Virus record (IMG/VR): IMGVR_UViG_3300029983_000009 | Coordinates: 1 to 64,000 of that record | From: a virus | Taxonomy: Duplodnaviria > Heunggongvirae > Uroviricota > Caudoviricetes | Direction: 5' to 3' (one strand) | DNA length: 64,000 bases | In this document: positions 29,015-59,179 of the stretch, in pieces | How positions within the stretch are numbered: the first letter of the stretch is position 1 | Layout of the letters: every line of letters begins with the position of its first letter | Made by a program: the position numbers and the translations under genes | Notes under the pieces: generated by a model | The model's input: only the letters and a program-made list of their open reading frames with translations | Database searches by the model: none | Told to the model about the DNA's origin: nothing

Positions 29015-29521
29015 ATGAATAAAAATGCAACTTTTTTTGGCGGTGCTATAAATGATAGAACGACAACTCAATATAATGATAGTATTCTCATTGGAAAATT
29101 CTTAGCAGAGAATGACTACAAAATTAAAAACGGTGGCTATGGTGGCTTAATGGAAGCTGTTTCCAAAGGTGCTAATGAAGCAGGAGGAGAAGTAACTGGC
29201 TATACTTGTTTATCAATTGGATGTGCAAGAGGTAATAAATTTTTAACAGAAACAGTTCCTTCTGTTGATATTTATCAAAGATTAAGATTATTGATATCAG
29301 ATAGTGATATTTTTATAGTTCAACGTGGAGGAATTGGTACATTATCTGAAGTTTTTCTTCTATTAGATGGTATCAGAAAATTAAAAGTAAAGCCAAGAAT
29401 ATTCCTATTTGGAAAAGAATGGAATAATTTATTTGTCAATTTAACTGACTTTATGTCACCTGAACAAATATCAATGATCACTTTTTGTCAAGACTTTGAA
29501 GATTTTAAATTAATATTTTGA
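29015..29521 (+). CDS. LOG / SLOG-family Rossmann-fold nucleotide-binding protein
   Basis: GGYGGLMEAVSKGA and VQRGGIGTLSEVF match the LOG (TIGR00730) GGGxGxMxA and PGGxGTxEE motifs. Confidence 0.65.
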   Translation: MNKNATFFGGAINDRTTTQYNDSILIGKFLAENDYKIKNGGYGGLMEAVSKGANEAGGEVTGYTCLSIGCARGNKFLTETVPSVDIYQRLRLLISDSDIFIVQRGGIGTLSEVFLLLDGIRKLKVKPRIFLFGKEWNNLFVNLTDFMSPEQISMITFCQDFEDFKLIF

Positions 29522-29557
29522 TATGATAAACTTGGTACAATAATTGTATGAAATGAA

Positions 29558-29911
29558 ATGAAAATGTATCAACTTATAACATCAATATTATTTGTAATAT
29601 TTGCAGTCATTAATGTTCATGCATTAGATAAAAAAACAAAATACAAAGATGATAATAGAGGATTATCAATTAAGTATTATTTAATATTTTATTTTACTAA
29701 TATTTTTTGCTACTTATTTTTAAAAAAAATAAGGGAAAAAAGAAAATTAGATTATTATATTTATTATTCAAACTATTATAAAAAATATAAAAAATCTCTT
29801 GATATTTTAACTAAATATTCTATAGTTGATGATTGTAATGCTATAAATTATAATGAAAAAACTTATAAAAAAATAGTTAGATATTTAAAAATAAGCAAAT
29901 TAAAAAAATAA
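29558..29911 (+). CDS. family E membrane protein (…IVRYLKISKLKK)
   Basis: Same FT..F.YLFLKKIREKRKLDYY core as 18026-19010. Confidence 0.5.
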   Translation: MKMYQLITSILFVIFAVINVHALDKKTKYKDDNRGLSIKYYLIFYFTNIFCYLFLKKIREKRKLDYYIYYSNYYKKYKKSLDILTKYSIVDDCNAINYNEKTYKKIVRYLKISKLKK

Positions 29912-30096
29912 ACAATAATATAAACCCAAACATGACAATATTGTTATGCTTAACAAAAAAAAAGAAGAAAATTATGAAACATCAACATTAGGTTTTATCA
30001 TTTGGTAGAGGTTCCCCTTTTATTATTTTTAAACAGTTAGTAATTAGAAGATTTAAACAAATTAACAAATTAATAAAAAATAAAAATAATAAAAAT

Positions 30097-30417
30097 ATGA
30101 AAACTACATTAAAAATTGATATTAAAAAACTTGCAGAGAATCAATCAAATCTCAGAAATCAAAGAAAAACTATTCACTTTAAAGGTGAAAGAGTAATGGA
30201 AGCATGGCAAGCAGATTATCAACATTCTGAAAACAGACATGAATTAAGAATGTTATATGCTGCATATGGAGTACTAAAAGGTAAAACATTTGAAGAAATT
30301 GAGCCTAAAAATAAACCTGATAAATTACCTTTATCACAATACAAAAATTCAATTGATAAATTAGTTGAAAAATACAAAGTGGTAGAAGAAATTACAGAAG
30401 AGTCATTAGCACTATAA
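30097..30417 (+). CDS. hypothetical protein
   Basis: ORF track. Confidence 0.5.
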   Translation: MKTTLKIDIKKLAENQSNLRNQRKTIHFKGERVMEAWQADYQHSENRHELRMLYAAYGVLKGKTFEEIEPKNKPDKLPLSQYKNSIDKLVEKYKVVEEITEESLAL

Positions 30418-30424
30418 ATAAAAA

Positions 30425-31006
30425 ATGAAATTATCTCAAAACTTATTTGAACTTTCAGAAGAAGACATTGAAACATCAAAGATGATGTACAATAAAGTGA
30501 TTAAATGCTTAGTTGTACCATATCACACTCAAAAACAACTTGAGTTAGATTATTCTCCAAATGTTTTTATGTTTCCTGAAAATGAAATGACAGAATCACA
30601 AGCAAAAAAATTCATCTCTATGGTTACCAATTCACCTTTACAGGAATTTTTGATCATCACAAAGAGTTCTAATATCATTTATGATATGGTTGATTGCTGT
30701 GTTCGCATTTTAACTGAAAATAATGTGATTATAACTTGTCCAGTTAAGACATTTGCTGCAAATTTATGGGACATATCATTATTGATATTGAACAACAATG
30801 AACACCAAATAACTGAAGCTGAAAAGTCTAAATCTCATATAATGATAGGTGATATTATAACAAAAATAGAAAATGCAACTTCTTTTACAGATGAAGAAGC
30901 TGATGAACTTTCTAAAACTGTTGATATCATTGGTGATGAGATAATTTCATATAGACTAAAAGAAATGCTAAATGAAAAACGTCAAACAGGATTTAGAAAA
31001 AGATAA
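30425..31006 (+). CDS. hypothetical protein (193 aa)
   Basis: ORF track. Confidence 0.5.
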   Translation: MKLSQNLFELSEEDIETSKMMYNKVIKCLVVPYHTQKQLELDYSPNVFMFPENEMTESQAKKFISMVTNSPLQEFLIITKSSNIIYDMVDCCVRILTENNVIITCPVKTFAANLWDISLLILNNNEHQITEAEKSKSHIMIGDIITKIENATSFTDEEADELSKTVDIIGDEIISYRLKEMLNEKRQTGFRKR

Positions 31007-31292
31007 ATTATTTATACTCATTGATAAAAAACTTGATGTCGCTTATGGAGGAGTCCAAGGTGCTCATGCATCATGTCAATGGTTACTTGATCATAAATAG
31101 GTACAAACCTGGAATAATCAATATTTAATTTTTCTCTCTGTAGAACTTGAAAAATGGATATTTAAGTTAAATCTTAAAAAATTAGATTTCACAGTTTTCT
31201 ATGAACCAGATTTAGATAATAAACCAACTGCAGTAGCAGTACATGGTAATGATTCTCTATTTCGTAATTTAAAACTATGGGGAGCTTTATAA
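30972..31292 (+). CDS. PTH2-like peptidyl-tRNA hydrolase with in-frame amber codon (TAG at 31098-31100)
   Basis: Hand translation MKNVKQDLEKDKLFILIDKKLDVAYGGVQGAHASCQWLLDHK*VQTWNNQYLIFLSVELEKWIFKLNLKKLDFTVFYEPDLDNKPTAVAVHGNDSLFRNLKLWGAL. Similarity to PTH2 (GKVAAQCSHA…) continues across the TAG, and the downstream part has no start codon of its own. Confidence 0.45.
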
Positions 31293-31305
31293 GCTCCCCA
31301 TTTTT
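31278..31305 (+). terminator. hairpin terminator (tggggagc/tttataa/gctcccca + TTTTT)
   Basis: GC-rich 8-bp stem plus T-run overlapping the stop of the PTH2-like gene, just before the tRNA. Confidence 0.5.
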
Positions 31306-31315
31306 AATCAAAATT

Positions 31316-31386
31316 GCTTATTTCGTCCAATGGTAGGGCTATAGACTCTAAATCTATCTATGTCGGTTCGAGCCCGATGGTGAGCA
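31316..31386 (+). tRNA. tRNA with anticodon CUA (amber suppressor, amino acid identity unknown)
   Basis: Hand-folded cloverleaf. Acceptor gcttatt/ggtgagc (4 WC + 3 GU pairs); D-arm GTCC-AATGGTA-GGGC; anticodon stem ATAGA/TCTAT with loop C-U-CUA-A-A; variable loop CTAT; T-arm GTCGG-TTCGAGC-CCGAT; discriminator A. Confidence 0.6.
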
Positions 31387-57665: not shown

Positions 57666-57666
57666 T

Positions 57667-57891
57667 ATGAAAAAATTTTTAAAGATATATTTCAATATTT
57701 TTTTGGAGCTTAAATATAGTATTTTATCAACATGGTTATTACTTTTTATTTTCTCAATACTTACTAAATCTCCTTGTAGTATGTTAGATTTAGCACTCAG
57801 TACATTTTATTTTACTATTTCAGTTGCATCAGTTATATTTTTATTATTAACTTTATTGATGTCAAAGTCAAACACTCATCTTGAAAAATAA
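57667..57891 (+). CDS. small membrane protein (paralog pair)
   Basis: MKKFLKIYFNIFLELKYSILSTWLLLF…KSPCS; paralog of the next gene. Confidence 0.45.
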   Translation: MKKFLKIYFNIFLELKYSILSTWLLLFIFSILTKSPCSMLDLALSTFYFTISVASVIFLLLTLLMSKSNTHLEK

Positions 57892-57895
57892 TATT

Positions 57896-58111
57896 ATGAA
57901 AAAATTTTTATATAGAAATTTGGCTATTATGTTTGAGGTAAAATATAGTATATTAACAACATGGCTTGGATTTTTTGTATTATCTACAGTTAGTAAATCT
58001 CCGTATAGCTTTACACAATTAGCTATCTTATCATTTATTATTACTATTTCTATTGTTTTATTTATCATGTTAATTGCAAATATTATTATTAATTGTAAAA
58101 ATAAAAAATAA
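57896..58111 (+). CDS. small membrane protein (paralog pair)
   Basis: MKKFLYRNLAIMFEVKYSILTTWLGFF…KSPYS; track start at 57881 uses TTG. Confidence 0.45.
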   Translation: MKKFLYRNLAIMFEVKYSILTTWLGFFVLSTVSKSPYSFTQLAILSFIITISIVLFIMLIANIIINCKNKK

Positions 58112-58114
58112 ATT

Positions 58115-58345
58115 ATGGCGAATTCAGATAGTTTTTATATTGACAAAAATGATAAGTTGAAAGTTTTAAATCATAATTCTAGGGAACTTTGGATAAAAGG
58201 TGGAGAATTAGAAGGTAAGGCTAAGATTGAAATAGAAGTTTTTACTTCATATGATCATGAAGAAGAAGCTATGAAAATTTATAATGCATTAAAAAATGCT
58301 GGATTAGAAAATCATTATTATAAAGTAAAAATAGAAATAAAATAA
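58115..58345 (+). CDS. hypothetical protein
   Basis: ORF track. Confidence 0.5.
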   Translation: MANSDSFYIDKNDKLKVLNHNSRELWIKGGELEGKAKIEIEVFTSYDHEEEAMKIYNALKNAGLENHYYKVKIEIK

Positions 58346-58350
58346 GTATT

Positions 58351-58560
58351 ATGAAAATAGGAGCGTTAATAGATTTAAACTCAGAAGCTCATGAAATTAT
58401 AAATTCTGACTTGAGTTGGAATGCAAAATATGATTTGATATTTTCTGATGATATGTCAATGAAAATAGAATTGGATTATTATGATCCAGATACATCATAT
58501 GAAGAAGATGCTTTAGCTTGGGTTCATGCATTTGATGAATATTTAGGATTAAGAAAATAA
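58351..58560 (+). CDS. hypothetical acidic protein
   Basis: ORF track. Confidence 0.5.
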   Translation: MKIGALIDLNSEAHEIINSDLSWNAKYDLIFSDDMSMKIELDYYDPDTSYEEDALAWVHAFDEYLGLRK

Positions 58561-58561
58561 T

Positions 58562-59179
58562 ATGAAAAATGTCGCACTATTTTTTGGTAGCTACAATCCT
58601 TGTCATAATACTCATATTAAGATAGCTGAGAATATATCTAAGCTAAATTATATTGATGAAGTACAATTGGTTGTTTCTCCACAAAATCCTTTTAAACATG
58701 ATTTGGCTGATTATAAAGATAGATGTAAAATGTGCGGTTTATCAGTAGAACCTTATATTAACATTACAGTTAATACAGTTGAACAGTACTTACCTTTACC
58801 ATCATATACAATAAATGCATTAAACTCATTAAGTTTATCAAATCCAGATACTAAGTATTATATGATAATGGGGTTGGATATTTGGTTAGATATAGACAAA
58901 TGGAAAAACTATAAAGTTATATGTGAAAAATATCCTTTTATTGTATTACCAAGAGATTTTGATAATGAAACAAATGAAAAATGTTTTGTGTATAAAAAAT
59001 CAGAATTACTTAGTAATAATGTAATTATAAATAATGATACTGTTTTTTTGAGTGATTTTAAAATATCATCTTTATCTTCAACAAAAATTAGAAATCTTAT
59101 TGCGAATTCAGAAGATATTAGTATCTTTGTACCATCATCAGTTGAGAAATATATTCATATACATAATTTATATAAATAA
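58562..59179 (+). CDS. nicotinate/nicotinamide-nucleotide adenylyltransferase (NadD / eukaryotic NMNAT type)
   Basis: ALFFGSYNPCHNTHIKIAE (compare GSFNPITNMHLRL of NMNAT and GGTFDPxHxGH of NadD) plus VVSPQNPFK. Confidence 0.65.
   Translation: MKNVALFFGSYNPCHNTHIKIAENISKLNYIDEVQLVVSPQNPFKHDLADYKDRCKMCGLSVEPYINITVNTVEQYLPLPSYTINALNSLSLSNPDTKYYMIMGLDIWLDIDKWKNYKVICEKYPFIVLPRDFDNETNEKCFVYKKSELLSNNVIINNDTVFLSDFKISSLSSTKIRNLIANSEDISIFVPSSVEKYIHIHNLYK

Follow-up and report, generated by a model that had tools for sequence, protein, structure and literature searches.

We analysed a stretch of 64,000 nucleotides of a virus of the Caudoviricetes (positions 1 to 64,000 of IMG/VR record IMGVR_UViG_3300029983_000009; hereafter the window), and focused on four open reading frames (ORFs) in it whose predicted products act on nicotinamide adenine dinucleotide (NAD+), ADP-ribose (ADPR) or related nucleotides. 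These ORFs had been singled out in a first-pass annotation made from the sequence, and the coordinates and strands given there (29015-29521, 37766-38317, 44104-44592 and 58562-59179) proved exact. In the order of the window, the four genes are:

29015..29521, plus strand: LOG-clade SLOG Rossmann protein (LDcluster4/TIGR00725-like; PF18306, PF03641), a predicted nucleotide phosphoribohydrolase
37766..38317, plus strand: candidate stand-alone NadM-like (archaeal-type) nicotinamide mononucleotide (NMN) adenylyltransferase without a Nudix domain (PF01467, NMNAT matches)
44104..44592, minus strand: AdfN / T4 gp30.3-type NADAR protein (PF08010, Phage_30_3), a predicted ADP-ribosyl-glycohydrolase
58562..59179, plus strand: NadD-type nicotinate/nicotinamide mononucleotide adenylyltransferase, a phage-clade variant (TIGR00482)

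Arrangement of the genes and phage lineage

Successive genes of this set are separated by 8.2, 5.8 and 14.0 kb, with dozens of small ORFans in between, and therefore the four genes do not form an operon. Their order, LOG ... NadM-like ... RNA ligase ... AdfN ... Y16D ... Metallophos ... NadD-like, was kept in related contigs, indicating that the set is an old and stable feature of this lineage. The genes do share a theme of NAD and ADP-ribose, which the lineage has conserved. The reading that we favour, with a probability of about 60%, is that the accessory part of a very large phage genome carries here four single-domain auxiliary genes that are independent of one another and make up neither an operon nor a complete pathway.

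The accessory region holding the four genes is AT-rich (~22% GC) and dense in ORFans. Over the entire window the GC content ranged from 19 to 29% (2-kb windows), the plus-strand block showed a strong positive GC skew, and ~190 short ORFs filled the 64 kb. The Pfam scan covered every window ORF of at least 120 amino acids (aa) and ten ORFs of 100-119 aa, and only ~10 of these gave a match, including the four under study. When 10 kb of the window was compared with GenBank phages by megablast, no nucleotide-level match was obtained. Identical copies of window proteins, the NadD-like protein among them, were present on metagenomic contigs of up to 177,597 bp, and relatives with 80-90% identity on contigs of 130,514, 221,902 (Ga0302277_1000012), 330,208 (IMGVR_UViG_3300029983_000007), 346,561 and 711,471 bp, and because identical and related proteins sit on such large contigs, the window derives from a jumbo or mega-phage lineage. 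Homologues of the LOG-like and NadD-like proteins (68-87% identical) were each found on the 130,514-, 346,561- and 711,471-bp contigs, and AdfN homologues (80-83% identical) on the 130,514- and 346,561-bp contigs. T4-type markers comprise a gp32-like protein and gp30.3 in the window, and T4_Y16D in the relatives. The host is probably a member of the Bacteroidota. The sequence available to us amounted to ~77 kb, i.e. the window with 10 kb upstream and 3.4 kb downstream, whereas the genome measures 180 kb or more.

The first-pass annotation had described the NADAR gene as the only minus-strand gene in a 26-kb plus-strand block. This was borne out and is even an understatement, as it is the sole homology-supported minus-strand gene from ~17.8 kb to 64 kb; two further small minus-strand ORFs in the plus-strand block (52555-52839 and 59963-60154) are doubtful. 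The opposite orientation was also kept in the relatives with 80-83% identity. The divergent spacer that precedes the NADAR gene (38 nt; 44593-44650) holds a conserved TAACTTTTTTA...ATATAATA stretch that stops a few bases short of the ATG, with counterparts in two relatives (locus L002, 9943-10000, and locus L213, 980-1037). This element may be a dedicated NADAR promoter or a leaderless start. In the window it forms a perfect palindrome, GCTATATAATATAGC, in front of the start codon, which occurs there once and was not conserved in the relatives. Scans for sigma-70 and Bacteroidota -7 promoters gave matches at or below chance and are uninformative in such AT-rich DNA.

The NADAR protein and the two adenylyltransferases

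The NADAR ORF matched PF08010 (Phage_30_3) with 98.2 bits (gathering threshold [GA] 36, E 4.8e-28). The domain assignment made in the first pass thus stood with regard to family and fold, but PF08719, the Pfam model that had been suggested for it, gave no match. A tblastn search with this ORF returned 1500 phage records, mostly T4-like, and the identity to gp30.3 of the Tevenvirinae was 31-40%. A single-sequence search of the PDB with the NADAR ORF matched nothing, and the family was placed by Pfam and structure prediction. The AlphaFold2 model (pLDDT 88, pTM 0.84) was compared with the PDB using Foldseek, and the top three matches were YbiA (2b3w; E 7.5e-5, TM 0.62), PnNADAR (8bau) and the G. 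lovleyi DarG1-NADAR (8bat), whereas the fourth-ranked match already had an E-value of ~5. According to this model, the protein has the NADAR alpha+beta fold.

T4 gp30.3, renamed AdfN, is an ADP-ribosyl-glycohydrolase of the NADAR family and is both necessary and sufficient for overcoming DarTG1; it takes ADP-ribose off DarT1-modified DNA, and its residues E36 and K43 are essential in T4, a K43A substitution killing the activity (PMC11257639). The catalytic glutamate E36 was invariant in all 22 homologues that we aligned, and both T4-like gp30.3 and the NADARs of PF08719 have it too. Position 43, the catalytic lysine of T4 AdfN, is an arginine in the window protein (codon AGG), and since lysine and arginine alternate among the 22 homologues (13 and 9, respectively), a basic residue is conserved here. 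T4 AdfN and the window protein have in common the Pfam family, the NADAR fold, the three top PDB matches, the catalytic glutamate and the C-terminal helix, and each has a small gene that stands alone in the early region of a large, myovirus-like genome. They differ in the arginine that replaces K43, in a C-terminal extension of ~15 aa in the window protein, in the probable Bacteroidota host of the latter, and in that the window gene runs against the surrounding 46-kb block. Because of its homology to the experimentally characterised T4 protein, the window NADAR most likely removes DarT1-type ADP-ribose marks from phage DNA. It would strip off the ADP-ribose that a DarT1-type toxin has attached to guanines of phage DNA, rescuing replication. 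The anti-DarT role proposed in the first pass is thus backed by experiments on the homologous protein AdfN. If true, AdfN-type counter-defence against DarT reaches beyond enterobacterial T-even phages to huge, AT-rich phages of, probably, Bacteroidota.

The NadD-like ORF scored 133.8 bits against TIGR00482, above the equivalog cutoff of 112.45 and over the full length (6-204), and it matched many solved NadD enzymes in the PDB, with E-values down to 3e-15, which confirmed its initial description as a NadD/eukaryotic-type adenylyltransferase. In the phage clade to which it belongs, the HxGH motif (GxFxPxHxGH in full) reads HNTH (GSYNPCHNTH), so that both histidines are kept and threonine replaces glycine. 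Human NMNAT1 also lacks glycine at this position (…TNMH). The SSTKIR motif, of the ISSTxIR type, is intact, and the clade shares an insertion of ~20 aa. Beyond the phage clade, the next relatives are NadD proteins of Bacteroidota (37-41% identical), and a 29%-identical match was found in the 735-kb phage LR756501.

The NadM-like ORF encodes a single-domain protein of 183 aa that matched PF01467 (CTP_transf_like) with 43.2 bits. The best NCBIfam models were those of archaeal/NadM NMNATs, though under their cutoffs, and NadR models gave at most 39 bits with cutoffs of at least 201. The best matches of a single-sequence PDB search were 1ej2/1f9a (E 1e-9), and when a profile built from this ORF and three phage homologues was used, all 12 matches were NMN adenylyltransferases (best 2.1e-12), namely archaeal NadM, NadM-Nudix and NadR. 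The ATP-binding motifs are intact (ARIQPVHNGH, of the GRxQPxHxGH type, and SATDVR, of the SxTxxR type). The archaeal NadM-type assignment therefore held for the motifs and for the PDB matches, all of which are NMNATs, but the equivalog cutoffs were missed.

The closest homologue in an isolated phage is gp96 of Bacteroides phage BS-TP1, which is 53% identical. The complete 111.7-kb genome of this phage encodes RtcB as well as an NAD-dependent DNA ligase, and on reading it from end to end we found no Nampt, LOG, AdfN or NadD. Because BS-TP1 carries gp96 without Nampt, the stand-alone NadM-like subfamily needs no phage Nampt. In the survey of Iyer et al., every phage with NadM also had NadV. The pairing of NadM-Nudix with NadV described there differs from what we see for the stand-alone subfamily, which occurs in the Nampt-less BS-TP1. 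The phage enzymes of NAD+ reconstitution pathway 2 (NARP2; e.g. of Vibrio phage KVP40 and RB43/RB16-like phages) share with the window protein the HxGH and SxTxxR motifs and an N-terminal domain of 28-30% identity, but the window protein has no Nudix domain and neither the window nor its flanks contain Nampt. This adds a lineage with NMNAT genes and no visible Nampt, which runs against the reported strict NadM-NadV pairing.

The LOG-like protein and a Bacteroidota NrtR operon

The LOG-like ORF matched PF18306 (LDcluster4, SLOG cluster 4; 48.9 bits, GA 26.3) and PF03641 (48.1 bits, GA 27), and in the PDB it matched TT1887, TM/VT76 and several cytokinin LOG enzymes (E 4e-10). The motifs GGYGGLMEA and RGGIGTLSE, together with R89 and E112, were invariant across the phage and flavobacterial homologues. 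With PF03641 above its gathering threshold and the LOG motifs kept, the LOG/SLOG Rossmann assignment of the ORF at 29015-29521 was upheld. The scores remained under the equivalog cutoffs, with 50.5 versus 106.9 bits for TIGR00725, 21 versus 300 for LOG and 15.6 versus 450 for PpnN. Thus, the window protein shares with LOG and PpnN phosphoribohydrolases the Rossmann fold, the GGxGxM and (P)GGxGTxxE motifs and the catalytic arginine and glutamate, but it belongs to the uncharacterised TIGR00725/LDcluster4 branch. A DprA/Smf-type identity, which the first-pass annotation had named as the case that would speak against LOG, was rejected, since no DprA model of Pfam or NCBIfam matched at E <= 0.1 and the PDB matches were all LOG-type; the sole link to DprA is the label of a PHROG family, 'DprA-like'. 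The suggestion that this SLOG protein binds a signal found no specific support, as the protein falls in the catalytic LOG clade and not in the YpsA/ThsA sensor clade.

The nearest cellular homologues are chromosomal genes of Flavobacteriaceae (44-52% identical). To describe their surroundings we used four genomes of Bacteroidota, Flagellimonas, Aquimarina, Maribacter and GCA_947492055.1, three of which are Flavobacteriaceae. In all four, the LOG homologue (47-52% identical to the phage LOG-like protein) sits in one operon-like cluster:

L011 2206-8306, L012 4352-12917, L013 2905-8854 and L103 2193-11612: Bacteroidota NrtR operon (gene context of the LOG homologues)

The gene order is NrtR - Prs-like - (ARH / Nuc_deoxyri_tr2) - NADAR - DUF4291 - Macro - LOG - Tpt1/KptA - (2OG-Fe oxygenase) - Metallophos - Nampt, with the variations that NADAR (PF08719) is absent in Flagellimonas and that Nampt follows NrtR in Maribacter. 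The LOG gene directly adjoins the NADAR gene in two of the four operons. The cluster looks like a cellular module for NAD reconstitution and ADP-ribose processing, resembling extended NARP1 operons. The location of all four cellular homologues in such an NrtR-to-Nampt operon is genuine comparative evidence for a role of the LOG subfamily in the turnover of NAD and ADP-ribose. Iyer et al. (2022), who ascribed an NAD-related role to SLOG domains of viruses, had made an exception of the LOG-clade SLOGs in phages (PMC9503650). The link of an uncharacterised LOG subfamily to an NrtR-Nampt-NADAR-Macro-Tpt1 operon is the most useful by-product of this analysis, since it provides a testable biochemical setting.

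The phage has not imported the NrtR operon, and only the LOG gene is in common. In tblastn searches, the other operon proteins had no match in the window or the related loci, save for a generic similarity in the N-terminal part of Metallophos. The LOG proteins of operon and window have identical active-site motifs, and a NADAR enzyme is present in the phage as well, but the latter is AdfN (PF08010) and not PF08719, and its gene lies 15 kb from the LOG-like gene.

On three low-GC viral contigs of IMG/VR (26-28% GC; L122 11013-14231, L166 5839-13794 and L189 1536-8613), which are unrelated to the window phage, we observed Nampt together with Prs-like and Metallophos genes. Their Metallophos is 38-46% identical to that of the flavobacterial operon, so that this phosphoesterase accompanies NAD modules of phages.

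LOG enzymes split nucleoside 5'-monophosphates by hydrolysis of the N-glycosidic bond. The window protein most likely acts on an AMP- or ADPR-derived nucleotide, in which it would cut the bond between base and ribose. Such cleavage could yield ribose-5-phosphate for phosphoribosyl pyrophosphate, or destroy an ADPR-derived product.

Interpretation of the gene set

NAD/ADP-ribose toolkits have already been documented in jumbo phages, so that no new principle emerges here. Of the jumbo phages, 48% have been reported to carry NADAR and 31% SLOG, and Macro, NADAR, SLOG and Nudix co-occur in them beyond expectation, usually as stand-alone early genes (PMC9503650), and nadD, nadM and nadR have been described in 'NAD-jumbo phages', with nadD in a 735-kb phage (PMC11662467, Microbiome 2024). 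Like these, the window phage is huge and has NadD-type and NadM-type adenylyltransferases, but no complete nicotinamide riboside, nicotinamide or Preiss-Handler pathway was seen in the window, and its NadD clade is distinguished by HNTH and the insertion. Since AdfN, NAD-jumbo phages and the co-occurrence of NADAR and SLOG have been published, what we have is a gene set of a familiar kind in a lineage that is new and very divergent. The additions are modest: the alternation of K and R at the second catalytic residue of AdfN-like proteins, the HNTH clade of NadD, NadM-like without Nampt, and the link between LOG and the operon.

NMNAT and NadD enzymes convert a mononucleotide and ATP into a dinucleotide and pyrophosphate. 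The NadM-like and NadD-type proteins would therefore add capacity for the last common step towards NAD+, in which NMN or nicotinic acid mononucleotide (NaMN) and ATP give NAD+ or nicotinic acid adenine dinucleotide. The mononucleotides could come from the host, from the turnover of an NAD-dependent ligase or from genes elsewhere in the genome, and we infer that the two enzymes raise the resynthesis of NAD+ from host- or ligase-derived NMN/NaMN.

Several observations weigh against reading the four genes in this way. The scores of the NadM-like ORF are well below the NCBIfam cutoffs (PRK01153, 70.3 versus 127 bits; TIGR01527, 58.7 versus 181.2 bits), and its middle third, residues 80-140, did not align to solved NMNATs. 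The NADAR protein has arginine and not lysine at the second catalytic position, where the K43A change inactivates the T4 protein, and T4 AdfN is most effective on hydroxymethylated DNA (PMC11257639). Finally, most of the genome lies outside the ~77 kb that we have seen, so that partner genes may be located elsewhere.

The most serious alternative, though in our view still a doubtful one, is that the adenylyltransferases are housekeeping enzymes that recycle NMN from an NAD+-dependent DNA ligase and maintain NAD+ for the NAD consumers of the phage during replication of a huge genome. The ligase LigA converts NAD+ into AMP and NMN, and NMNAT makes NAD+ from NMN and ATP. An NMNAT alone thus closes the LigA cycle, and this combination, a stand-alone NadM-like protein and an NAD-dependent DNA ligase without Nampt, is what BS-TP1 contains. 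NAD supply for NAD-consuming phage enzymes has been proposed before (PMC11662467). However, the Pfam scans found no LigA or other NAD-consuming enzyme in the window, the explanation leaves out the NADAR and LOG genes, and it is compatible with an anti-defence role and does not exclude one. On the evidence of sequence, the genes may act in anti-defence, support phage enzymes that consume NAD, or do both.

Somewhat less probable, and on the whole unlikely, is what the first-pass annotation had proposed, that the genes form one coordinated anti-defence layer that rebuilds NAD+ after depletion by Thoeris, DSR or SIR2-type systems, as a NARP-like pathway of which the partner (Nampt, Adps or PnuC) is encoded elsewhere in the genome. 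NARP1 consists of Adps (PRPP-synthetase-like) and Namat (Nampt-like), and NARP2 of Nampt and NMNAT(/Nudix), while NARP3 combines the transporter PnuC with a NadR-like NMNAT fused to a ribosylnicotinamide kinase (PMC13464706). The absence of Nampt and Adps from the window, already noted in the first pass, was substantiated by the Pfam scan and by tblastn, in which Nampt, Prs, Macro, Tpt1, NADAR and NrtR queries had no match in the window. For NARP1 there were no Pribosyltran or NAPRTase matches within the window, for NARP2 there was no Nampt in the window or its flanks and no Nudix fused to the NadM-like protein, and for NARP3 there was no PnuC or kinase domain within the window. Overall, Nampt, Adps, PnuC, NadR kinase, Nudix, Macro and Tpt1 were not found in the window, the 10 kb upstream or the 3.4 kb downstream. 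Two Nampt scans of IMG/VR, both dependent on exact motifs, returned none of the eight related contigs: with a flavobacterial Nampt alignment, none of the 80 listed of 367 relatives lay on these contigs, and an AT-biased DNA pattern for IRPDSGDP matched 106 loci, none of them on these contigs. No low-GC match of the Nampt scans shared genes with the window.

A NAD+-rebuilding layer requires the partners of NARP1, 2 or 3, and since no partner that makes NMN/NaMN or reuses ADPR is present in the ~77 kb, the proposed layer aimed at NAD+-depleting immunity is not supported as it was formulated. It is further contradicted by the distances of 6-14 kb between the genes, which are neither clustered nor co-transcribed as a unit, by the lack in the NadM-like protein of the Nudix domain of NARP2 enzymes, and by BS-TP1, which among isolated phages is the nearest genome to carry this stand-alone NadM-like gene and lacks Nampt. 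What speaks for a partner elsewhere is that NadM was always accompanied by NadV in the phages of Iyer et al., that the cellular operon of the LOG homologues holds Nampt and a Prs-like gene, and that the sequence seen covers only part of the genome, which is no smaller than 180 kb.

A broader interpretation, which we consider improbable, would make the TIGR00725/LDcluster4 LOG a dedicated enzyme of ADP-ribose/NAD turnover that acts alongside NADAR, both in the Bacteroidota NrtR operon and in huge phages, and the Nampt-independent pair of adenylyltransferases, of which one has the altered HNTH motif, a minimal route of NAD+ restoration. In that case, LOG could for example cleave adenine off ADPR, AMP or some immune or toxic metabolite derived from ADPR, and the restoration route would need only NMN/NaMN, such as is left after pyrophosphatase-type cleavage of NAD+ or ligase turnover. 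If correct, phages would have a fourth, partner-less way to defend their NAD+ pool.

We give still less weight to the possibility that NADAR, LOG and the window phosphoesterase join the nearby RNA ligase in the repair of RNA, by processing ADP-ribose derivatives (Appr>p, Appr-1''p) from Tpt1-type removal of 2'-phosphates. This idea has been discussed (PMC9503650), and it agrees with the presence of Tpt1, Macro, Metallophos and, in one case, RlaP in the operon of the LOG homologues, with the position of the RNA ligase between the NadM-like and NADAR genes, and with an RtcB gene ~4 kb from the NadM-like gene in BS-TP1. However, the window yielded neither Tpt1 nor Macro, 2H or a kinase, its Metallophos is not orthologous to that of the operon, and AdfN-family proteins have a demonstrated DNA substrate. 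The chances are similarly slim that the LOG-like protein destroys or sponges immune signals, binding or cleaving cyclic ADP-ribose (cADPR)-type or other nucleotide messengers in an anti-Thoeris- or anti-CBASS-like manner, since, despite its intact active site and the proposal of Iyer et al. that viral SLOGs degrade cADPR-like signals at the adenine-ribose bond (PMC9503650), it is of the LOG-like clade and not of the YpsA/ThsA sensor clade that this proposal mainly meant, its closest homologues are chromosomal genes in an NrtR-regulated metabolic operon, and a PADLOC scan of six proteins gave no meaningful match.

Other features of the window

The remaining genes and features that could be described are the following:

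4569-7028, plus strand: 819-aa protein with major-vault-protein domains (MVP_shoulder 97 bits, Vault_3, Band_7/SPFH)
19787-20368, plus strand: short gp32-like single-strand DNA-binding protein (PF08804, 30.5 bits), among the few T4-type core markers
31316-31387, plus strand: tRNA with anticodon CUA (amber suppressor), labelled tRNA-Pyl by ARAGORN
39175-40143, plus strand: homing-endonuclease-like ORF (DUF7487, phrog_3339), directly upstream of the RNA ligase
40207..41211, plus strand: RNA ligase (PHA02142 OB domain and RNA_ligase; PF21189 116 bits, PF09414 64 bits, phrog_968 236 bits)
50777..51478, plus strand: calcineurin-like metallophosphoesterase (PF00149, 45 bits), syntenic between AdfN and NadD-like in the relatives
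59179-59559, plus strand: unknown 126-aa ORF without a Pfam match, downstream of NadD-like also on identical-sequence contigs
62039-62584, plus strand: 181-aa ORF with a weak HAD/NIF-phosphatase match (Pfam E 0.008) and a match to phrog_1238, 'phosphoheptose isomerase' (E 1e-9)
8241-11690 (minus strand), 23296-24871, 25968-27691 and 34733-36399 (plus strand): tandem arrays of a 38-gene family
1416, 28733, 31934, 32203 and 54121: single members of this family

The RNA ligase gene lies 1.9 kb downstream of the NadM-like gene, its synteny was kept in the relatives, and we regard it as context only. In one relative (locus L102, 12577-14343), a GIY-YIG endonuclease ORF splits the OB-domain gene from the ligase gene. 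The metallophosphoesterase had a weak PHROG match to an RNA-ligase-fused phosphoesterase. It was rejected as an orthologue of the flavobacterial-operon Metallophos, as the similarity is weak, generic and limited to the N-terminal 70 aa. The start of the 126-aa ORF overlaps the stop of the NadD-like gene by one base, which suggests translational coupling. The 181-aa ORF is possibly a further small-molecule phosphatase, judging from its profile matches.

The suppressor tRNA suggested recoding of TAG, but this was unsupported in the window, where TAG is the stop codon of 23 of 181 ORFs and reading through it raises coding coverage by only ~1%; any such recoding would concern other, e.g. late, genes. 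The 38 paralogous small genes (~70-125 aa) had no Pfam match and share an N-terminal MFKxGDKVVCI and a C-terminal RFIxLxEYRKxKLxKL, and several smaller tandem families (6, 4, 4, 3... members) are present as well. The major-vault-domain protein is unusual in a phage, and was kept on the identical-sequence contigs.

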